Source: an uncultured Ignavibacteriales bacterium
GTDB taxonomy: Bacteria > Zixibacteria > MSB-5A5 > GN15 > FEB-12
Assembly (NCBI GenBank): GCA_964520865.1
Contig: CAZFOY010000008.1
Coordinates: forward strand, 3,155 to 67,154
Reading direction: 5' to 3'
DNA length: 64,000 nucleotides
In this document: positions 523-29,777 of the stretch, piece after piece
How positions within the stretch are numbered: position 1 is the stretch's first letter
Layout of the letters: every line of letters begins with the position of its first letter
Translations under genes and position numbers: made by a program
Notes under the pieces: generated by a model
Database searches by the model: none
Told to the model about the DNA's origin: nothing
Seen by the model: the letters and a program-made list of their open reading frames with translations, nothing else

Positions 523-972
523 TCACTCCAGCAGCTTTTTCATTTCTTCGAGGAATTCCGCTTTGTCTTTGAATTTACGGTAGACCGAGGCGAATCGCAC
601 GTAGGCGATCTCATCGGTCTGGCGAAGTTTCTCCATCACCAGTTCACCGATATCTTTCGAAGTTGCCTCCGCCTTTCCTCTCGTTTTGATCTGGTTCTCG
701 AGGTCATCAACTATCGCTTCGATCTCCTTGGGAGAGATCGGGCGTTTGTTGCAGGCGAGCTTGATTCCGTAGAGGAGTTTGTATCGATCGAACGGTTCTC
801 GCTGCCCTCCCGACTTGATAACCGTCAGCGTTCCCTGTTCGATGTATTCATAGGTGGTGAACCGCTCGTGGCACTTGAGACATTCACGGCGACGGCGGAT
901 GGCCAGGCCGTCCTGAGCCGGACGGCTGTCCACGACTTTATCTTCTTCGTAACCGCAGGCGGGGCATTTCAT
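523..972 (-). CDS. nrdR: transcriptional repressor NrdR
   Basis: N-terminal zinc ribbon MKCPACG...CLKCHERFTTYE followed by an ATP-cone; 149 aa, typical NrdR length. Confidence 0.95.
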   Translation of the reverse strand: MKCPACGYEEDKVVDSRPAQDGLAIRRRRECLKCHERFTTYEYIEQGTLTVIKSGGQREPFDRYKLLYGIKLACNKRPISPKEIEAIVDDLENQIKTRGKAEATSKDIGELVMEKLRQTDEIAYVRFASVYRKFKDKAEFLEEMKKLLE

Positions 973-3099: not shown

Positions 3100-4083
3100 G
3101 TGACATCAGACTGCGATTGCATCGTTATCGGGGCGGGAATTACGGGCATAATGGCGGCCCTCTCCCTCCAGGAGAAAGGCCGAAGTCCGATTGTGCTGGA
3201 AAAATCCCAGAGCCCGGGCGGGCGAATGGCTACCCGAATAATCGGAAAGGTAACCTTTGATCACGGGGCTCAGTACTTCACCGCCCGAAATCAGGCATTT
3301 CGGAGAATTGTGACGGAGTGGGCCAAAAAGGGGATCGTGAGGCACTGGACCGACGCATTTCCCCGTCCGGGCAATCGGTCTCAGGACGGATTCCCCAAAT
3401 ACTGTGGGGTCGGTGGAATGGCCTCGATTTGCCGTCAGCTGGCCACGCCCCTTGACATCCGGGTCAACGAGCAAGTTACCACCGTGAAGTCGAAGAAAGA
3501 TAGATGGCTGATTTCTACCGAATCGGGTGGCCAGTATTCTACCGGAACACTCATTGTCACTGCGCCGATGCCCCGGACGCTGTCTTTGCTTAAGTCAGCG
3601 GATCTTAGACTCCCGGCCTACGTTCGAATGGGACTTACCATGATTGCGTATGACCCGTGTATTGCATTGATGGCCGTGCTCGACGGCCCTTCCAAAGTCC
3701 CGGAGCCGGGCGGAATCGAACTCGGCGGCGAGCCAATCTACTGGATGGCCGACAGCCGAATGAAAGGAATTTGCGACGACGGCCATGGCGTCACGATCCA
3801 CGCCGGACCGAACTTCAGTCAGCAGGTGTGGGATCAACCGGACGAAGAGATTGCCGAACGACTATTCGAAGAAACCGAGGAGTGGCTCGGACGAACGCCT
3901 GTGAGCTACCAGCTTCATCGATGGCACTATAGCCGAACGACGGCAACCTATCCGGAGCCGTATCTTATGATCGAAGATCCGGCCACGATGGTGCTTTGCG
4001 GCGATGGTTTCTGGGATGCCCGAATCGAGGGTGCGGCTCTTTCCGGACTGGCCGCAGCAGAGGCAGCGATGAGAGCGAAGTAG
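3100..4083 (+). CDS. NAD(P)/FAD-dependent oxidoreductase (renalase/amine-oxidase-like)
   Basis: GTG start. N-terminal dinucleotide fold DCIVIGAGITGIMAA...LEKSQSPGGRM; 327 aa. Confidence 0.8.
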   Translation: MTSDCDCIVIGAGITGIMAALSLQEKGRSPIVLEKSQSPGGRMATRIIGKVTFDHGAQYFTARNQAFRRIVTEWAKKGIVRHWTDAFPRPGNRSQDGFPKYCGVGGMASICRQLATPLDIRVNEQVTTVKSKKDRWLISTESGGQYSTGTLIVTAPMPRTLSLLKSADLRLPAYVRMGLTMIAYDPCIALMAVLDGPSKVPEPGGIELGGEPIYWMADSRMKGICDDGHGVTIHAGPNFSQQVWDQPDEEIAERLFEETEEWLGRTPVSYQLHRWHYSRTTATYPEPYLMIEDPATMVLCGDGFWDARIEGAALSGLAAAEAAMRAK

Positions 4084-4098
4084 AACGACGGATGATTT

Positions 4099-4129
4099 TG
4101 TAGGGCAGCCTCATCTTCGAGCCTGCCAT
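4099..4129 (+). repeat. REP-like element, family A (GTAG head + imperfect palindrome)
   Basis: TGTAGGGCAGCCTCATCTTCGAGCCTGCCAT. Same 31-nt architecture as 6601-6631, 23689-23719, 27552-27582, 27616-27646 and 27671-27699. Confidence 0.8.
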
Positions 4130-4183: not shown

Positions 4184-4184
4184 C

Positions 4185-4213
4185 GTAGACCCGACCGTTC
4201 CTATGGCCGGGTG
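4185..4213 (+). repeat. REP-like element, family D
   Basis: GTAGACCCGACCGTTCCTATGGCCGGGTG. Near-identical copies in reverse orientation at 23467-23495 and 6490-6517. Confidence 0.75.
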
Positions 4214-6268: not shown

Positions 6269-6392
6269 ATTAGTCTCCTCATATACTCCTGATACGGCAT
6301 CGGGAGGAATTTACTTTGAGAAGAATGCGAGGGCAAATGGTTTTGGGGGCCGGGTGGCCCGTCTGCTTGCGGCGGGTTTCTTTGACGAATTG

Positions 6393-6456
6393 AATGTCGG
6401 GTTTCTCCATCGCAGACCCCATGAATGGGGCCTGCTCGGTCGGAACGCCGACCTAC
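6393..6456 (-). repeat. REP-like element, family B
   Basis: Minus strand reads GTAGGTCGGCGTTCCGAC...GGAGAAACCCGACATT. Related to the tandem pair at 26446-26550. Confidence 0.7.
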
Positions 6457-6489
6457 ATCAAGATGACATGCGTGGCGGCATGCACGATA

Positions 6490-6517
6490 CACCCGGCCAT
6501 AAGAATGGTCGGCCCAC
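6490..6517 (-). repeat. REP-like element, family D (head degenerate, GTGG)
   Basis: Minus strand reads GTGGGCCGACCATTCTTATGGCCGGGTG. Confidence 0.65.
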
Positions 6518-6600: not shown

Positions 6601-6631
6601 ATGGCGGGCTCGAAGACGAGGCCGCCCTACA
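6601..6631 (-). repeat. REP-like element, family A
   Basis: Minus strand reads TGTAGGGCGGCCTCGTCTTCGAGCCCGCCAT, ending 8 nt past the stop of the acyl-CoA dehydrogenase gene. Confidence 0.8.
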
Positions 6632-6639
6632 CAAGAATT

Positions 6640-7785
6640 CTATTCGATTTCTTTGAGCATCTCGCGGGCGATCACGAGGCGCTGGATCTCCGAAGTTCCT
6701 TCGCCGATCTCGCACAGCTTGACATCGCGCCAGATCCGTTCGGCCGGGTAAGGTCCCGTGTAATAGCCGATCCCACCCAGGATATCCATCGCCCGCTCGG
6801 CCGCCCGTCGACCGACTTCGGATGCGTACAGCTTGCACATCGCCGAGAACTTGGTGAACTTCTCCCCCGCATCCTTCCGCTGGGCACAATCATAAATCAA
6901 CAACCGGGCGGCTTGAAGCTCCATGTCGGAGTCGGCGAGTTTATGTTGTATTGCCTGGTTGTATGCGATCGGCTTGCCAAACTGCTTGCGATCCGCGGCA
7001 TACTTCAGAGCACAGTCGAGAGCACCCTGTCCGAGTCCGAGCGCCATGGCGCCTATTGAGATGCGGCCGCCGTCGAGCGTGATCAACATCTGCTTGAACC
7101 CATCGCCGATCTTCCCGAGCAGATTCTCATCGGGAACTTTCATGTCATCGAAATGCAGGAATGCGGTGTCGGACCCACGAAGGCCGAGCTTGTTTTCTTT
7201 CTTCCCTACGGCATAGCCGGGGAAATCTTTTTCCATAATAAAGGTCGTGATCGCTTTATCTTCGGGATCGTCAGATGTGCGCGCCGTTCCGATAGTAGCG
7301 AACGCTTTCGTAGCCGACGTAATCCAGCACTTACTGCCGTTGACGATCCAGCCGTCGTCGACCTTCCGCGCCATCGTCTTGGTTCCCCCGGCATCGGAAC
7401 CGGCATCCGGTTCGCTCAAACCGAATGCGAGCAGTTCGCCTTTGGCGGCTCTCGGAAGATACTTCTTCCTCTGCTCCTCGGTCCCGAACTTGTAGATGGG
7501 AAACGTCCCGAGAGAATTGTGCGCGGCGATCATAATTCCGGTTGAGCCGCAGACGCGCGAAAGTTCTTCGACCGCTATGGCGTAAGAAATCGTATCGATC
7601 GGTCGGCCGCCGTACTTCTCCGGAAAGAGCGCGTTGAACATCCCCATCTCGGTCAGGGGCTGCATATGTTCAGTCGGGAATCGTTGTTCTATATCCAGTG
7701 TCTCCGCGAGCGGCGCGATCTTTTCCAGACAGAATGCACGCATCTTCTCGCGGAATTCGTGATGTTTCTTTTCCAGCAAAGCCAA
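6640..7785 (-). CDS. acyl-CoA dehydrogenase (SCAD/MCAD-type catalytic Glu)
   Basis: 381 aa with FGLSEPDAGSDAGG...GGRISIGA...EIGEGTSEIQRLVIA. Confidence 0.92.
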   Translation of the reverse strand: MALLEKKHHEFREKMRAFCLEKIAPLAETLDIEQRFPTEHMQPLTEMGMFNALFPEKYGGRPIDTISYAIAVEELSRVCGSTGIMIAAHNSLGTFPIYKFGTEEQRKKYLPRAAKGELLAFGLSEPDAGSDAGGTKTMARKVDDGWIVNGSKCWITSATKAFATIGTARTSDDPEDKAITTFIMEKDFPGYAVGKKENKLGLRGSDTAFLHFDDMKVPDENLLGKIGDGFKQMLITLDGGRISIGAMALGLGQGALDCALKYAADRKQFGKPIAYNQAIQHKLADSDMELQAARLLIYDCAQRKDAGEKFTKFSAMCKLYASEVGRRAAERAMDILGGIGYYTGPYPAERIWRDVKLCEIGEGTSEIQRLVIAREMLKEIE

Positions 7786-7789
7786 TGTG

Positions 7790-8935
7790 CTACTCCTTCA
7801 GCAGATCTTTTGAGATAACCATCTTCTGGGCTTCGGTTGTTCCTTCGTACAGCTCGGTCACGCGGGCATCGCGGAAATACCGTTCGACCGGATACTCTTT
7901 GATGTATCCGTAGCCGCCGTGAATCTGCACCGCCTCATTACATACGTAATTAGCGGTCTGAGTGCAAAAGAACTTGGCCATAGAGGCCTCGCGATGACAC
8001 GCCTTGCCTTCGTCTTTAAGACGCGCGGCCCGATATCCGAGCAGCCGTCCGGCATCTATCCGCGTCGCCATCTCGGCGAGCTTGAACTGAATTGCCTGGA
8101 AGTTAGCGATCGGCTGATTGAACTGCTTGCGCTCTTTGGCATACTTGAGCGCTTCGTTGAACGACGCCTGGGCGATGCCGAGCGCCTGGAAGGACACGCC
8201 GATGCGTCCGGAATTAAGAATAGTCACCGCCATGCGGAATCCGTCGCCGGGCTGTCCAAGAAGATTCTCTTTCGGGACCTTCACATCCGAGAAGCTGATC
8301 TCACGGGTGTCCGAAGCTTTGATGCCGCATTTCTTCTCCGGCGCGCCGAGGGTGATTCCGTCGGTGTCCTTATCGACGACGAAACAGCTGATACCGCGAT
8401 GACCTTCGTTAGGACGAGTCTTGGCAAACACGATCAGCACGCTCGCGTACATTGCGTTCGTCACGAACGATTTCGTACCGTTGATAACCCAGTGATCGTC
8501 GTTCTCGACCGCCGACGTGCTCAGTGAAGCGACATCGGTCCCGGCGTTCGGCTCGGTGATACAATAGGCACCAATCTTTTCGCCGGCCGCCATTGCGGGA
8601 AGGTACTTGCCCTTGAGATCGTCGCTGCCGAACAGCTTGATGATCTCGCACGTGAGAGAATTGTGAACGGACAGCATAATGCCAAACCCGGCGCACCCAC
8701 CGCACAATTCTTCGAGTACGCCCATGAACGATGTTGTCGGAAGACCGAGCCCGCCGTATTCCTCAGGGACGGTGAAGCCGAAATAACCGAGCTCCGCCGT
8801 TTCATCGATCAGTTCCTTCGGAGTGGTTCCCTCTTCGTCCAGTTCGAGCGCCCGAGGGTAGAGCCGCTTTTCCGCGAACTCCCGGGCCATCTGCTTGAGT
8901 TCAAGATCATCTTCGGACAGCATAAAATCCATCAA
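7790..8935 (-). CDS. acyl-CoA dehydrogenase (butyryl-CoA dehydrogenase-like)
   Basis: 381 aa with CITEPNAGTDV...SGRIGVS...ELYEGTTEAQKMVIS. Tandem paralogue of 6640-7785. Confidence 0.92.
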   Translation of the reverse strand: MMDFMLSEDDLELKQMAREFAEKRLYPRALELDEEGTTPKELIDETAELGYFGFTVPEEYGGLGLPTTSFMGVLEELCGGCAGFGIMLSVHNSLTCEIIKLFGSDDLKGKYLPAMAAGEKIGAYCITEPNAGTDVASLSTSAVENDDHWVINGTKSFVTNAMYASVLIVFAKTRPNEGHRGISCFVVDKDTDGITLGAPEKKCGIKASDTREISFSDVKVPKENLLGQPGDGFRMAVTILNSGRIGVSFQALGIAQASFNEALKYAKERKQFNQPIANFQAIQFKLAEMATRIDAGRLLGYRAARLKDEGKACHREASMAKFFCTQTANYVCNEAVQIHGGYGYIKEYPVERYFRDARVTELYEGTTEAQKMVISKDLLKE

Positions 8936-18726: not shown

Positions 18727-19020
18727 ATGGCTTTAGCAATTGCTCAAGGCGTCGGTGCATCGATCATAATCGGGTTGCTGCTCGGCACCCTGATTGGCAC
18801 TCGCTTTCGCTTTCCAAAAGAGTGGACCGGGTTCATGGTGACGGTTGCTCTCAACATTATGGCGCCGTTCATCGGTCAGGGGGTTATTCTTGTCGGCATC
18901 ACACAATGGAATATCACCATCGTGTTCAACTATCTTCTGCTAGGGTTGATTACGCCGATTAATATCGCGTTCGTTTGGAGATTCGTGCAGAATCGTAAGT
19001 CAGGAGGCCCGTCATCTTGA
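18727..19020 (+). CDS. small hydrophobic membrane protein (about 3 TM), paralogue 2
   Basis: 97 aa, co-linear similarity to 18382-18687, 39-nt spacer. Confidence 0.6.
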   Translation: MALAIAQGVGASIIIGLLLGTLIGTRFRFPKEWTGFMVTVALNIMAPFIGQGVILVGITQWNITIVFNYLLLGLITPINIAFVWRFVQNRKSGGPSS

Positions 19021-19051
19021 CGTTCAACAAAAACCCACAAGGGGATTGAGA

Positions 19052-19815: not shown

Positions 19816-19842
19816 GTCAGGAACACAGGGTTCCTGACCTAC
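19816..19842 (-). repeat. REP-like element, family C
   Basis: Minus strand reads GTAGGTCAGGAACCCTGTGTTCCTGAC (9-bp perfect stem). A truncated family-A remnant follows at 19843-19871. Confidence 0.8.
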
Positions 19843-19894
19843 GGTGCTCGAAGACGATGCATACCTACAAGAATTTTGTCAGTAGACCGTGACC

Positions 19895-23383: not shown

Positions 23384-23466
23384 GGCGACTTACTCCCGGA
23401 CAGATTGATTTCCGCGGTGCCATTCGATTCATGGTGTTTCCGGTACTGCTTGCGGTGGGTCCAGCA

Positions 23467-23495
23467 CACCCGGCCATAAGAACGGTCGGGCCTAC
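23467..23495 (-). repeat. REP-like element, family D
   Basis: Minus strand reads GTAGGCCCGACCGTTCTTATGGCCGGGTG. Confidence 0.75.
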
Positions 23496-23502
23496 GAGCA
23501 TC

Positions 23503-23529
23503 GTAGGTCAGGAACCCTGCGTTCCTGAC
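23503..23529 (+). repeat. REP-like element, family C
   Basis: GTAGGTCAGGAACCCTGCGTTCCTGAC. Confidence 0.8.
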
Positions 23530-23556
23530 ATTCATGATCGATTGGTGCTGCGTAAA

Positions 23557-23584
23557 GGTCAGGAGGGCGGGCCTCCTGACCTAC
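23557..23584 (-). repeat. REP-like element, family C variant
   Basis: Minus strand reads GTAGGTCAGGAGGCCCGCCCTCCTGACC. Same head and GTCAGGA arm start, with the rest of the stem swapped compensatorily. Confidence 0.75.
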
Positions 23585-23688
23585 GGATCCGGGCGTGAGG
23601 GTATTTGTTGGAGTCGAGAGAATCGAGGCGCCGAAGAAAATCTGGCCCCCCGCATTCGCGAGGGTGACATGCCTGCGGCATGCGCGTA

Positions 23689-23719
23689 ATGGCACGCTCG
23701 AAGACGAGGGTGCCCTACA
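23689..23719 (-). repeat. REP-like element, family A
   Basis: Minus strand reads TGTAGGGCACCCTCGTCTTCGAGCGTGCCAT, 18 nt past the clpB stop. Confidence 0.8.
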
Positions 23720-23737: not shown

Positions 23738-26368
23738 TTAGGCCTCGACATGTTCTTCGGAAGGAGCCGATGAATTGTCCGCGACCAGTTGCAGCTCGTT
23801 GTCGGCAGCATCGATTTTCAGTCGCTGGCCGGCATGCAGCTGACCCGCAAGGAGCATCTTTGCGATCTGCTGGCTCAGTTGCTTGTTGACGAATCGCTTG
23901 ATCGGCCGCGCCCCGAACATCGGATCATAGCTGCTCTTCGCGATGAATTCCACAGCCGGTTCGGACGCAACAATCGTAACATCCTTCTCCTTCAGCAGAG
24001 CTTCGAGATGATGCAGCTGCAGCCTTACGATCTGCTTGACGTCTTCAGTCGTGAGCGACGCAAACACGATCGTCTCGTCGATCCGGTTGAGGAATTCCGG
24101 ACGGACCGATTGGCGAAGGGTCGCGAGCACATTCTTCTTGATGTTCTCAAGCACGACATCACGATTGAACTCGCCGATATTCTCTGATTCCTTGAGGATG
24201 TACTCGGCCGCGATATTTGAAGTCATGATCAGGATCGTGTTCTTGAACGACACGGTCCGACCCTTGTTGTCGGTCAGCCGGCCTTCGTCCAAAACCTGCA
24301 GCAGGATGTTGAACACTTCCGGATGCGCCTTCTCGATTTCATCGAGCAGAACGACCGCATACGGACGCCGTCGGACTGCTTCGGTCAGCTGTCCACCCTC
24401 ATCATAGCCGACATATCCCGGAGGGGCGCCGATCAGCCGCGATACCGAATGCTTTTCCATGTATTCCGACATGTCGATTCGGGTTATCGCATCCTCGGTG
24501 CCGTACAGAAATTCCGCCAGCGCCCGGGCAAGTTCCGTCTTCCCTACTCCCGTCGGACCGAGGAAGATGAACGAGCCGATCGGACGGTGCGGATCGGACA
24601 ACCCGGCTCTGGACTGCCGCACGGCGTCGGAGACAGCGCGGACTGCTTCATCCTGGCCGATTACACGTTTATGCAACTCGTCTTCAAGACGCAACAGCTT
24701 CTCGGACTCCGACTCGGTCAGGCGGGTGACCGGAATGCCTGTCCATTTGGAGACGATCTCGGCAATATCTTCGGCATCGACCATCTCTTTGAGCAACTGC
24801 CGCTTCTCTTGAATGACCGTCAAAGAATGCGTGAGCAACTGCAGCTTCTTTTCCGCGTCGGCAATCTCGCCATACTTGATCTTGGCAGCCGTTTCATAGT
24901 CGGCCCTGCGCTCGGCTTCGCCGGCTCGATGTTTCAACTGCTCAATCTCGACTTTCAGCCCGCGGATGGCGTCGACAGTATCTTTCTCTTTCTTCCATTG
25001 AGTGTGCAGGTCCTCACGCTGAGCGTAAAGATCTTTCAACTCTTCTTCGATCGGTTTCAGAGCTTCTTTCGCGTTCTTCTCGCGTTTGATCCCTTCTTTT
25101 TCGATCTCAAGCTGACGAATCCGCTTCTCGACCGAGTCGAGTTCTTCCGGCATCGAGTCAATCGATATGCGCAGTTCCGCCGCCGCTTCATCGACCAGGT
25201 CAATTGCCTTGTCCGGAAGGAACCGGTCGGCGATGTATCTATCTGACAGCTTCGCTGCTGCTATGAGGGCAGCATCAGAAATCTTAATCCCGTGATAGTT
25301 CTCATAGCGCTCGCGCAGGCCGCGGAGAATTGAGACGGTATCTTCGACCGAAGGCGGCGCAATGAGCACCGGAGCAAGTCTCCGCTCAAGGGCAGCGTCC
25401 TTCTCGACATGAAGGCGGTATTCATCGAGCGTCGTCGCGCCGATGAAACGTATCTCCCCACGGGCCAGGGCCGGTTTGAGCATGTTGGAGGCATCGAGCG
25501 ATCCGCCTACCGCTCCGGCACCGACTATCGTGTGCATTTCGTCGACAAACAAAATGACCCGCCCTTCGGCATCGGTCACTTCCTTAATGATCGCCTTCAG
25601 GCGTTCTTCGAACTCGCCACGGAATTTCGATCCGGCGATAAGGGCGCCGATATCGAGCGCGACAAGCTGCCGGTCTTTCAGCGTCTCGGGGACTTCACCG
25701 ATCGCGATCTTTTGCGCCAGTCCTTCGACCACCGCCGTCTTCCCCGTTCCTGGCTCGCCGATAAGCACTGGATTGTTCTTGGTGCGGCGCGAGAGGATCT
25801 TGATCACGCGGCGGATTTCGTCCTCACGGCCGATGACCGGATCGAGCTTGCCGTCGCGGGCCATCTTGGTCAGGTCGCGCGAGTATTTCTCCAGCACGGC
25901 GTATTTCGATTCCGGGTTGTCATCGGTCACGCGGGTCTTGCCGCGGATCGAGGTCAGCGCCTTGAGGATCTCGTCTCGTTTGATGCCATTCCGTTTCAGG
26001 ATCTCCTGCGCCTTACTCTTTTCTTCCAGCAGGGCCAGAAGGATATGCTCGACCGAGACGTATTCGTCGTGAAAATTCTTGAGCTCGTTTTCGGCTTTGT
26101 TGAGCACCTGGGTGAACTCCGGCGATGCATAGAGCTGTCCTCCCTGTTGTTTGGGGAGGGTCTTGATGGCATCATCGGTTTCGGCTACGATCGTATCGTA
26201 ATCGGCACCCATCTTCTTGATAATCTGTTCGACCAAACCGTCTTCCTGCAGCAACAAGGCATCGAGCAGATGCACCGGCATGACCTGCGGGTGCGCTTCT
26301 GACTGCGCCTTCTGCTGTGCGTACTGGACAGCATCGATCGACCGCTGGGTAAATCTATTGAAATTCAT
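23738..26368 (-). CDS. clpB: ATP-dependent chaperone ClpB
   Basis: 876 aa with two AAA+ modules ([18 protein letters not shown]) and a long middle coiled coil. Confidence 0.97.
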
Positions 26369-26554: not shown

Positions 26555-27490
26555 CTACCCCTCCCACTCGTCCAGCAGCTTCTGCTGCTTCTCGGTCAGG
26601 TGCTTCGGGATTGTCACTTTGATCTCGACATAGAGATCTCCCTGTTTCCCGCCGACCGCCAGTCCCTGGCCCTTAAGACGCATCCTCGTTCCCGGCTGAG
26701 TTCCGGGCGGAACGGTCAGCTTGATCGTTTTGGTCAGCGTCTTGACCTCCGCTTTCGTTCCTTTCATCGCCTCGATAAACGAAATCGTGGCCGACGTATA
26801 AATATCGTTTCCCTTGCGTTCGAAATTTTGATCCGGCATGACATGCACCGTTATGATTAGGTCACCACTTTTGCTTCCATTGTAGCCCGACACACCCTGT
26901 CCGGCCAATCGTATTTTCTCACCGTCGCCGATCCCCGCAGGGATCTTCACCCGGAGTTTCCGGCCGGTATTGCCGATCGTGATCGTCTTCGACACACCTC
27001 TGGCTGCTTCCACGAACGAGATCGACAGATCGGCCGCGATATCCGGGGCTTTCTGCGGCTGACGTTGCCACGGCTGTTGGGCGGCCGGGTGGCCGCCGAA
27101 TATCGACGACAGGATATCTTCGAACCCGCCCGCGCCGGCGGCATTACCGCCGAAATTGAAATGGAACGACCGGCCTCCGCCGCCTCGTCCGCCCTGGCGG
27201 AACATCTGGGCAAACGCGTCCGGATCGAACCCGCCCATTCCCGGACCGCTTCCGGGCCCGCCTCCGGCGAACGCGCCGTACTTGAGCATCGTGTCGTACT
27301 CGGTTCGCTTTTTCGGATCGGACAGCGTCTCGTTCGCTTCGGAGATTTCCTTGAATCGCTTTTCCGCGTCGACGTTGCCTTTGTTGCGATCGGGATGATA
27401 CTTCTTGGCCAGCGTGCGGAACGCTTTCTTGATGTCATCCTGCGAAGCATCTTCCTTCACGCCGAGTATTTCGTAAAAGTTCTGGGCCAT
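26555..27490 (-). CDS. J-domain co-chaperone, CbpA-like (DnaJ class II, no zinc finger)
   Basis: J domain YYEILGV...YHPDRN, a Gly-rich linker and two C-terminal beta domains. No CxxCxGxG repeats. Confidence 0.88.
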
Positions 27491-27551
27491 GTTAAAGTAT
27501 CACCACCTTATCTTCAAATTTCTCCCGGCATCGGTCGGTTGTTGGCAGTCT

Positions 27552-27646
27552 TGTACTGCACGTCCTTCTTAGAACGTGCCATCAGTGAAAGGCTTGAGCC
27601 TTTCTCGGGCAGCCTTGTAGGGCACGTCCTTCTTAGAACGTGCCAT
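27552..27646 (+). repeat. two tandem family-A REP-like units (64-nt period), each followed by the hairpin gaaaggc-ttga-gcctttc
   Basis: 27552-27582 reads TGTACTGCACGTCCTTCTTAGAACGTGCCAT. 27616-27646 reads TGTAGGGCACGTCCTTCTTAGAACGTGCCAT. Confidence 0.85.
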
Positions 27647-27670
27647 CGGTGAAAGGCTTGAGCCTTTCAA

Positions 27671-27699
27671 GGCAGTTTCTAAGAAGGAACTGCCCTACA
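27671..27699 (-). repeat. family-A REP-like unit in inverted orientation (REPIN-like partner of 27616-27646)
   Basis: Minus strand reads TGTAGGGCAGTTCCTTCTTAGAAACTGCC. Together with 27616-27646 it forms an 84-nt imperfect palindrome. Confidence 0.8.
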
Positions 27700-27884
27700 A
27701 TCGAACCGCCCTACAGAGCAACTGCCCTGCGGGAGATTATGTAAACTGTAACGTACTATACTCGCAATCCGTTTCACTATTCGCGGCCCTGCGCCGGTCA
27801 AACCGTACGTTTAACCGACGCCGCCACGAACGGGTCGGAGCCTGTGAATAGAAACTACTCACAGAACTCCATCTATGTCAAAGG

Positions 27885-29777
27885 TTACTTCACTTCTTCG
27901 AATTCAGCGTCAACCGCATTGTCGTCCTTCTTCGGCTCTTCCGAAGGGGAATCGCCGGAAGGCGGGGCATCCTGCCTGCTGGCCTGCTGATACATTTCAG
28001 CAGAGGCTTCCTGCCAGATTCGATTCAGTGATTCAACCGAGCTTTCCATTTCGGTCACATTGTCGGACTTCATCGCTTCCCTGACTCGACCGATTCCGGC
28101 TTCGATCTTCGCTTTCGCGTCTGCGCCGATCTTGTCGCCGAATTCCTTCAGCTGTTTCTCGGTCTGGAAGATCGCCGAGTCAGCCTGGTTGTGGGCCTCG
28201 ACCTTGCGCTTCTTCTCGCGGTCTTCGGACTCGTGCACCTTGGCGTCATCGACCATCTTTTTGATGTCGTTTTCGGTAAGGCCGGACGAAGCTTCGATCC
28301 GGATATTCTGCGATTTGCCGGTCGCGTTGTCCTTGGCCGTGACACTGAGGATACCGTCGGCGTTGATGTCGAACGAGACTTCAATTTGCGGAATCCCGCG
28401 CGGCGCCGGCGCGATACCGTCGAGCACGAACCGTCCGATCGTCTTGTTGTCAATCGCCATCTCCCGCTCACCCTGGAGGACATGGATGTCAACCTGCGGC
28501 TGATTATCGCTTGCAGTCGAGAAGACCTGCGACTTTTTGGTCGGAATGGTCGTATTGCGTTCGATCAACCGGGTCATCACGCCGCCGAGCGTCTCGATAC
28601 CGAGCGACAGCGGGGTGACGTCGAGCAGGACGACATCCTGAACTTCGCCGGTGAACACACCGCCCTGAATAGCCGCGCCGACCGCAACTACTTCGTCCGG
28701 GTTGACCGAGCGATTCGGCTCCTTTCCGAAGAATTCGCGAACCAGTTCGACCACCTTCGGCATACGGGTCATTCCGCCGACCATGATCACTTCGTCAACC
28801 TGATTCATCTTCAGCTTCGCGTCATCGAGCGCTTTCTGGACCGGTTCGATCGACCGTTTGAGCAGGTCGTCGACCAGCTGTTCGAATTTCGCCCGGGTGA
28901 GCGACAGATTCATGTGCTTCGGACCCGAACTGTTCGCCGTAATGAACGGCAGGTTGATCGTCGTCTGCATAGTTGAGCTGAGTTCGATCTTGGCTTTCTC
29001 GGCCGCTTCTTTCAGGCGCTGGAGGGCCATCGGATCGGTTGAGAGATCAATGCCATCGCTCTTCTTGAATTCAGCCACGAGCCAGTCGATAATCCGCTTG
29101 TCGAAATCATCGCCGCCAAGATGCGTGTCACCATTGGTCGAGAGCACTTCGAAGACGCCATCGTTCAAATCGAGAATGGAGATATCGAACGTGCCGCCAC
29201 CGAGGTCGTACACGGCCACTTTGCCGGTTTTCTTCTTGTCGAGACCGTAAGCAAGCGCCGCCGCCGTCGGCTCGTTGATAATTCGCTTTACATCGAGCCC
29301 GGCAATCCGCCCGGCATCTTTGGTTGCCTGACGCTGCCGGTCGTTGAAGTAGGCGGGGACCGTGATCACCGCTTCCTTGACCGAATGACCGAGATACTCC
29401 TCGGCCGTCTTTTTCATTTTCGCCAGTACCATAGCGGAGATCTGCTGTGGAGCGTAGTCTTTGCCGTCGAGTACGATCACCGGTTCGCCGGAGCTGTTCG
29501 AGGCTACCTCGTAGGGATAGTTCTTAATCTCTCCCTGGACCTCGTCGAATTTCCGGCCGATCAGCCGCTTGGCCGAAAAGACGGTGTTCATCGGGTTAGT
29601 CACTGCCTGGCGCTTGGCCACCGTTCCGACCAGCCGTTCGCCGTTCTTGTCGATTGCGACAACCGACGGGGTAGTGCGATCGCCTTCGGAGTTGGGGATG
29701 ACTTTCGGATCATTCCCTTCCATGATTGCGACCACCGAGTTGGTGGTACCTAAATCTATGCCTATGATTTTGTTCAT
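27885..29777 (-). CDS. dnaK: molecular chaperone DnaK (Hsp70)
   Basis: [26 protein letters not shown]; 630 aa. Confidence 0.98.

Follow-up and report, generated by a model that had tools for sequence, protein, structure and literature searches.

GTAG REPs are described, in the sections of the survey of Di Nocera et al. considered here (2013, PMC3733652), as an unpaired GTAG, an imperfect palindrome of 20 to 40 bp, and a short conserved tail at the untagged end. According to these sections, several families may be found in one genome, and units form HH dimers with spacers of 20 to 100 bp, which are sometimes structured; heterodimers also occur, as do trimers made of a singleton plus a dimer. 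The same sections place REPs within about 20 nt of the 3′ ends of ORFs, the TAG of the head sometimes acting as the stop codon, and mention families that reside in multiple species. The ends of IS200/IS605 elements (IS608 and ISDra2) combine, in the parts of PMC6006769 considered here, subterminal imperfect hairpins with a short 5′ cleavage motif, and are handled as single-stranded DNA by an HUH/Y1 transposase without target duplication. In the REPINs of Pseudomonas fluorescens (Bertels and Rainey 2011, PMC3116915), two inverted REPs separated by a short spacer form one long hairpin in extragenic DNA.

The stretch analyzed here, referred to as the window, comprises 64 kb (G+C content, 54%) and contains six copies of a palindromic repeat, family A, three of which are clustered between dnaK and dnaJ. 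All of the traits listed above for the GTAG REP superfamily are also present in family A, as far as the considered sections of the survey describe them (PMC3733652). Since every trait measured is one described for GTAG REPs (Di Nocera 2013), we assign family A to this class: with a probability of about 0.8, it is a GTAG-type REP family of a Zixibacteria lineage that forms REPIN-like dimers. Zixibacteria, the hosts of the sequence TGTAGGGC-N-TCTT-N-GCCAT, are not among the phyla named in the consulted passages of the survey, which covers 24 families (PMC3733652). A search of a literature library retrieved no paper linking Zixibacteria with REP, REPIN, or RAYT.

As in the P. fluorescens REPINs, two inverted family-A units flank a short spacer and form one long hairpin at extragenic sites, and sequences of this kind also flank the RAYT genes of the lineage; unlike in P. 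fluorescens, the two arms of family-A dimers differ, spacers vary from locus to locus, and most copies are singletons (PMC3116915). The hairpin plus short 5′ motif of these REPs recalls IS200/IS605 ends, and no conserved duplicated flank was seen in family A. REPs differ from IS200/IS605 elements in being non-autonomous, RAYT genes being typically present in low copy number, and the orientation of family A tracks the neighboring gene rather than a locus-wide strand. Family A also resembles the E. coli REP/BIME elements by its 5′ GTAG, by a mismatch near the loop, and by clustering in operon spacers. The kind of element is well known, and family A is an ordinary bacterial mobile repeat. Only two points are mildly unusual, namely, the occurrence of one identical 29-mer across 17 species (among those listed) and the gene-linked orientation.

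Family A in the window

The pattern TGTAGGGCNNNNNCNTCTTNGANNNNGCC, searched with up to 3 mismatches, matched the window at exactly six sites (4099+, 6603-, 23691-, 27552+, 27616+, and 27671-), against a chance expectation of 0.03 matches per shuffled window; none of 100 shuffles reached six. These are the only copies found by the pattern and the same six that a first-pass annotation of the window had proposed. All six lie between ORFs, according to both the ORF list and gene calls, in agreement with the intergenic placement claimed in that annotation. The GTAG head that it had ascribed to the whole family is present in five of the six copies (TGTAG before the stem), the head of the copy at 27552 being degenerate. 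The three clustered copies occupy a spacer of 394 nt that separates two minus-strand genes, dnaK (27885-29777) and a gene of the dnaJ/cbpA type (26555-27490). The heat-shock neighbors include clpB (23738-26368) and an hsp20 gene upstream of dnaK; the names dnaK, dnaJ, clpB, and hsp20 were taken from Pfam marks (JGI metagenome contig, 100% identical to the window). The cluster contains the following features.

27552-27582, plus strand: degenerate family-A REP unit, with the head TGTACTGC where TGTAGGGC is expected; within the first copy of a tandem duplication
27587-27604, no strand: small hairpin GAAAGGCTTGAGCCTTTC, duplicated along with the REP unit; local to the dnaK-dnaJ spacer and not a part of family A elsewhere
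27616-27646, plus strand: full family-A REP unit TGTAGGGCACGTCCTTCTTAGAACGTGCCAT, left arm of a GTAG-outside (HH) dimer
27651-27668, no strand: structured spacer of the dimer, which is the second copy of the small hairpin
27671-27699, minus strand: full family-A REP unit TGTAGGGCAGTTCCTTCTTAGAAACTGCC, right arm of the HH dimer
27703-27729, minus strand: two partial units, TGTAGGGCGGTTCGAT and CGCAGGGCAGTTGCTC (head plus 5′ arm only), adjoining the full minus-strand unit

The sequence from 27616 to 27699 is an HH dimer, i.e., it has the REPIN layout, across a structured spacer. The two facing sites (27616-27646, plus strand, and 27671-27699, minus strand), described in the first-pass annotation as a long palindrome, do form one: an 86-nt hairpin with the GTAG ends outside, whose 30-nt arms (27615-27644 and 27671-27700) are 87% complementary and separated by 26 nt. 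The left and right arms are different stem variants, and the dimer is therefore a heterodimer. Its left half, consisting of the REP and the spacer hairpin, is part of a 64-nt tandem duplication (27544-27604 versus 27608-27668; 93% identity), which accounts for the appearance of a triplet. The small hairpin was unique to the window locus among the fetched loci that were compared. The predicted DNA fold of positions 27540 to 27735, taken as a whole, had a z score of -6.8 relative to shuffled sequences, with the long hairpin as its core. Searches with Rfam retrieved only tRNAs at gathering scores and, at lenient E values, chance matches of miRNA precursors to the long hairpin that were far below threshold. 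Scanning the dnaK-dnaJ spacer for promoters and terminators gave no relevant match.

The family-A head and 5′ arm are stuttered at 16 nt in the segment from 27703 to 27729, possibly owing to slippage or to abortive RAYT processing. Degenerate CGCAGGGC heads are also present in two of the loci fetched from other genomes (L016 and L039).

The remaining copies of family A in the window, one degenerate relative, and units of the sibling families B and D are located as follows.

4099-4129, plus strand: family-A singleton, co-oriented with ORF 3100-4083 and 15 nt beyond its stop codon
6601-6631, minus strand: family-A singleton, co-oriented with ORF 6640-7785 and 8 nt beyond its stop codon
19816-19844, minus strand: further family-B unit
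19846-19872, minus strand: degenerate family-A-like unit TGTAGGTATGCATCGTCTTCGAGCACC, abutting a family-B unit
23502-23586, GTAG outside: two family-B units, GTAGGTCAGGA...TCCTGAC
23689-23719, minus strand: family-A singleton, 18 nt past the stop codon of clpB and co-oriented with it; kept at the orthologous position of a related genome (L103, 3736-3764)
26444-26555, minus strand: two tandem family-D units of 56 nt, 84% identical, GTAGGTCGGGTTCCG...GAAACCCGAC, filling the clpB-dnaJ spacer

The three singletons (4099+, 6603-, and 23691-) thus all lie head first, 8 to 18 nt beyond a stop codon on the same strand. The first-pass annotation had noted that families B, C, and D likewise start with GTAG, and GTAG-headed families in addition to family A were indeed located in the same few intergenic regions. 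A strict scan for GTAG plus a hairpin retained 10 units in the window, compared to about 2 in Markov controls; the earlier count of about 15 GTAG-headed units is plausible once the looser units of families C and D and the degenerate copies are added. The consensus of family C is (C)GTAG(A/G)CCCGACCGTTC(C/T)TATGGCCGGGTG. Further units of GTAG-headed families are present at 23467-23586, 19816-19872, 18994-19024, 4184-4213, and 6486-6512, and a copy related to family D is found at 6387-6413.

Structure of the family-A unit

The family-A unit comprises 29 to 33 nt (about 32 nt). It begins with (T)TGTAGGGC, continues with an imperfect stem of 9 bp that encloses a loop of 6 nt, (N)TCTT(N), and ends in an AT tail. 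In a profile of the copies, information was limited to positions of about -2 to +31, corresponding to (T)nT-TGTAGGGC-stem-loop-stem-AT, and the flanks were random or unrelated. Family A is a discrete unit dropped into unrelated contexts.

Structural conservation was evaluated with a model of 5 unpaired, 9 paired, 6 loop, and 9 paired positions applied to 29 different variants, taken from the window and from related genomes. At each of the four stem pairs that the search pattern did not fix, both sides changed. Double-sided cells numbered 23, compared to 7.6 in shuffles (none of 500 shuffles was as high), and 87% of the cells were paired in the real structure versus 26 to 49% in slid-partner controls. 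The invariance of the head across loci is by construction, since the search pattern demanded it. The first-pass annotation had inferred compensatory changes from five stems of the window. The paired changes are real, but only two of these stems pair perfectly (GGCACGT/ACGTGCC and GGCAGTT/AACTGCC), whereas the three others (GGCAGCC/GCCTGCC, GGCGGCC/GCCCGCC, and GGCACCC/GCGTGCC) are imperfect, with a common C.C mismatch at stem position 6; this mismatch characterizes the CCTC sub-type seen in the window. On the GTAG strand, 17 of the 29 variants have a C13.A22 mismatch by the loop, at the second pair from it. In E. coli, re-pairing of the loop edges abolishes cleavage by the RAYT, according to the sections of the survey considered here (PMC3733652); a substrate of a RAYT would thus be expected to conserve such an asymmetry.

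Distribution and turnover in related genomes

Other genomes were sampled as 8-kb loci around matches to family A. At least 109 strict copies (loci plus window) were recovered from at least 26 species-level metagenome-assembled genomes (MAGs), mostly Zixibacteria; the assemblies, which are species representatives, are labeled Zixibacteria, GN15, "Ignavibacteriales," or just "bacterium." Among the copies listed, 10 of the 97 that were testable lay in long open frames (at least 60 codons on each side), versus 61% of random positions in the same loci. The first-pass annotation had proposed a check for copies beyond the window and for a restriction to intergenic DNA, and had named the lack of both a RAYT-like gene and further copies, or a similar density of copies inside coding sequence, as speaking against its REP-type reading. 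Neither was observed, and that reading is supported. Single matches in Streptomyces, Eubacterium, Anoxynatronum, Aminicenantes, and others were dropped as non-palindromic; those of Streptomyces share flanks and were therefore taken as chance or coding matches.

An identical 29-mer, TGTAGGGCGGGTCCGTCTTCGAACCCGCC, accounted for 43 copies in 17 species-level assemblies among the matches listed, whereas the window and its closest relative carry lineage-specific variants of the stem and loop. Some GTAG REP families of the survey occur in several species, and sharing of the 29-mer by 17 genomes (among those listed) is therefore not unprecedented, on the basis of the sections considered here (PMC3733652).

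In the fetched loci, 22 inverted pairs with GTAG outside were found (up to 4 mismatches), 21 of them with a start-to-start distance of 49 to 65 nt; other neighboring pairs of family-A units were tail-outside (4 pairs) or direct (5 pairs). The tail-outside pair of L058, which is the one that was inspected, falls between tandem dimers. The two arms of a dimer mostly represent different variants. Spacers also differ from each other in sequence, except for those of local tandem copies, which are alike (L058 and L088). Singletons far outnumber dimers in the loci sampled and have the same sharp edges.

Turnover was apparent from the comparison of the window with the Zixibacteria MAG MFD02416.bin.1.319 (L103), to which it is 84 to 88% identical at the DNA level; the window accordingly comes from a Zixibacterium. 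Downstream of clpB, a family-A copy is present in both genomes between flanks that are about 90% identical. L103 contains an extra A-like unit between clpB and the shared copy, and the family-B and family-C units present at this site in the window are absent from L103. Thus, whole units come and go while some persist, and conservation of the post-clpB copy between genomes that are about 13% diverged indicates that at least some copies are old and stable.

Two observations concern the gene content of the same region. The L103 units 1701+ and 3736-, with GTAG outside, bracket about 2 kb (the counterpart in the window is 23387-23719), and this bracketed stretch contains two hypothetical genes (305 and 178 aa) absent from the window. 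The clpB-dnaJ interval of L103 contains a 324-aa gene where the window has just the 56-nt repeats.

In a GN15 MAG (L100) whose dnaK is 77% identical to that of the window at the DNA level, the dnaK-dnaJ spacer (685-1196) contains a canonical family-A unit (774-802, minus strand), indicating that this operon spacer is occupied in a distant lineage too. It also contains a long-stem variant, TGTAGGGCAGAACC...GGTTCTGCCATT, with the head and tail of family A (812-861), and other GTAGG-headed hairpins.

RAYT genes in the lineage

A tblastn search of the window with 240 RAYT-family proteins gave one spurious match only, confirming the earlier statement that the window contains no RAYT gene. A motif screen of the fetched loci identified a 166-aa gene in L081 encoding a protein with HFH and YIHYNP motifs. 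This protein scored 26.9 bits against PF01797 (cut-off, 23) and 137.3 bits against NF047646, the NCBIfam model "REP-associated tyrosine transposase" (cut-off, 80), and matched the E. coli TnpA(REP) structure 4ER8 with an E value of 7e-24. The alignment covers residues 12 to 153, with conservation of the HUH and Y motifs. From its sequence, the L081-type gene is a RAYT of the E. coli TnpA(REP) type, which we take to be the type whose complex with REP DNA has been solved (4ER8). In contrast to the E. coli enzyme, it is associated with a different REP sequence; the two proteins are about 40% identical, by eye. The E. coli REP/BIME elements and TnpA(REP) are reportedly the subject of studies by Messing (2012) and Ton-Hoang (2012).

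The flanks of the L081 RAYT gene carry, with GTAG outside, GTAGGTCAGGAGCCCTGCGCTCCTGAC, which is family B of the window. Family B is the REP type flanking the RAYT genes in L081, L111, L112, L196, and L199, and family D is the REP type flanking those of the metagenome loci L117 and L122. In a set composed of 80 metagenome relatives of the L081 RAYT and four more Zixibacteria RAYT genes (seven fetched loci), the genes were almost always flanked on both sides by matched GTAGG-headed hairpins, with GTAG outside; a single GTAGG-head type was present on both sides at 59 of the 88 RAYT-type loci tallied, two of which are relatives of the L023-type gene described below. Close look-alikes of family A flank the RAYT genes of L119 (GTAGGGCGGGCTTGCTTCAAGCCCGCCAT, with GTAGGGCGGG...CCCGCCAT) and L194 (TGTAGGGAAGGAGCC...GGCTCCTGCCAT, with TGTAGGGAAGG...CTGCCAT).

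Family A itself was found next to one RAYT-type gene and one remnant. In L023, it lies in the outward orientation 92 nt upstream of a gene that runs off the end of the locus and whose 102-aa N terminus scored 56 bits against NF047646; homologues of this gene are named RayT in their sources. In L049, it lies 22 nt after the C-terminal remnant of a RAYT, in the expected outward orientation; a word-indexed protein search detected no homologue of this 46-aa remnant. Among the RAYT loci examined, no intact RAYT had family A on both flanks: none of the 80 metagenome loci with relatives of the L081 RAYT contained strict family A, hairpins other than family A flanked the three relatives of the L023-type gene, and other families flanked the four Zixibacteria RAYTs. 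The flanking of RAYT genes by repeats of the window, which the first-pass annotation had proposed as a check, was observed for families B and D; family A was found on one side of the gene of L023 and on one side of the remnant of L049.

Further observations were made on the RAYT loci themselves. In L081 (6139-6390), a tandem duplicate of the 3′ end of the RAYT gene (~70 codons) and of its 3′ family-B REP lies just downstream of the gene, and a family-A-like fragment follows the duplicated end (about 6418-6440). L110 of MAG50 contains, at 2026-2517, a more distant RAYT-like gene with an HMH motif and NPVKSGLV; its flanks carry a different inverted hairpin, CCCACCATTTATGGTGGG, which has no GTAG head.

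Proposed mobilization, gene-linked orientation, and alternative explanations

Family A would be cleaved and mobilized by a RAYT. In the mechanism that we propose, the hairpin and its 5′ GTAG would be bound and cut on single-stranded DNA by an HUH/Y1 transposase, a RAYT of the E. coli TnpA(REP) type whose gene would lie outside the window. Singletons or dimers would then spread to intergenic sites, chiefly those right behind stop codons, and units would afterwards be kept, duplicated, or lost singly. Several findings run against this explanation. The window contains no RAYT gene, none of the RAYT loci examined has an intact RAYT between two family-A units, and at least some copies are old and stable. 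Dimer spacers differ, whereas a strict REPIN is a dimer that replicates as one unit, and the gene-tracking orientation is not predicted by lagging-strand targeting alone.

Orientation was assessed among the copies listed. Long co-oriented ORFs end within 30 nt of the head of 38 of the 109 copies, compared to 11 of 109 for convergent ORFs ending within 30 nt of the tail. In 10 copies, a frame of 100 codons or more has the TAG of the head as its stop codon, although some of these frames may be spurious. Orientation agreed with that of the adjacent gene in 26 cases versus 7, and with the majority gene strand of the locus, estimated by a crude ORF-based proxy, in 38 cases versus 30. In conflict cases, it tracked the adjacent gene 8 to 1. 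Lagging-strand targeting as the sole cause of the bias is unsupported by this crude test.

A further possibility, which we consider plausible as an added function though less likely than not, is that the elements act mainly as RNA, in the form of 3′-end hairpins, terminators, or barriers to 3′-to-5′ exonucleases; the spacer cluster would then set the DnaK:DnaJ ratio. The preference for co-oriented gene ends and the tracking of the adjacent gene, even on the minority strand of a locus, argue for such a role, as do the z score of -10.6 for the predicted RNA fold of the 394-nt spacer and the presence of family A in the dnaK-dnaJ spacer of the distant GN15 MAG. In MAGs labeled Ignavibacteriales, a T-run follows 9 of the 15 listed copies of the perfect-stem variant GGGTTCGTCTTTGAACCC, an arrangement that resembles an intrinsic terminator, and transcription has likewise been proposed for published GTAG REPs, according to the sections of the survey considered here (PMC3733652). 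However, T-runs are absent from all copies of the window, and the orientation that prevails places a C.A mismatch in the RNA, whereas the opposite strand would pair better through G.U. The occurrence of identical 29-mers at unrelated loci in 17 species (among the matches listed) also speaks against an origin of this kind, since identical 29-mers cannot arise in place and a dispersal mechanism is still required. Dispersal would need a transposase in any case, and an RNA role would thus be an added or co-opted function rather than a true alternative to mobilization by a RAYT.

The perfect-stem T-run variant TGTAGGGCGGGTTCGTCTTTGAACCCGCC was observed in L008, L012, L018, L034, L035, L055, L076, and L079, among others (MAGs CAZNAI01, CAYVWS01, and CP070777).

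A more far-reaching version, which we regard as unlikely, is that Zixibacteria co-opted family A as a general 3′-end RNA element (terminator or stabilizer), the T-run variant being an intrinsic terminator in one sub-lineage, and that host-level selection maintains it phylum-wide with the RAYT as the maintenance enzyme. Such a co-option could follow from the 29-mer shared by the 17 genomes listed, the head-first placement after stop codons on either strand, and the presence of family A in the dnaK-dnaJ spacer of distant lineages.

Returning to mobilization by a RAYT, we consider it highly improbable that a DDE-type transposase, recognizing terminal inverted repeats, moves the inverted pair as a MITE, or that the copies are immobile fossils spread by recombination without any RAYT. 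The window does lack a RAYT gene, family A did not occur on both sides of any RAYT in the loci examined, dimers of about 80 nt with inverted ends are MITE-like, and some copies are old and positionally conserved. Nonetheless, singletons far outnumber dimers and have equally sharp edges, the flank profile shows no conserved duplicated flank, and an unpaired 5′ GTAG followed by an imperfect hairpin is the signature of RAYT/IS200-type processing. In addition, sibling GTAGG-headed families flank RAYT genes in the same genomes, and family A adjoins one RAYT gene and one RAYT remnant, oriented as expected.

Operators of a heat-shock regulator (like CIRCE/HrcA or HAIR/HspR) controlling the hsp20-dnaK-dnaJ-clpB cluster could be suspected from the position of the repeats between dnaK and dnaJ, from the copy after clpB, and from the family-A unit upstream of dnaJ in a distant relative, but this explanation has next to no likelihood, as most copies lie downstream of unrelated genes, by stop codons and not in promoters, family A and its siblings also occur in other intergenic regions of the window, and the scattered distribution of more than 100 copies in unrelated contexts argues strongly against it. 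The CIRCE (TTAGCACTC-N9-GAGTGCTAA) and HAIR (CTTGAGT-N7-ACTCAAG) operators had no match within the window.

Implications for Zixibacteria genomes

With family A, the known range of the REP/RAYT system comes to include an uncultured phylum. Family A also shows that one REP sequence is able to stay identical across many species, in keeping with the idea that REPIN-RAYT systems are long-lived residents inherited vertically. Family A and its siblings explain the structured intergenic DNA of the window and ought to be annotated or masked before any hairpin in the heat-shock operon is taken to be regulatory; they might also be of use as markers of lineage in Zixibacteria MAGs.

One minor observation concerns the coding sequences upstream of the singleton at 6601-6631. 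ORFs 6640-7785 and 7790-8935 (minus strand, 381 aa each) are adjacent and have in common a 114-nt stretch that is 70% identical; they are probably tandem paralogues.
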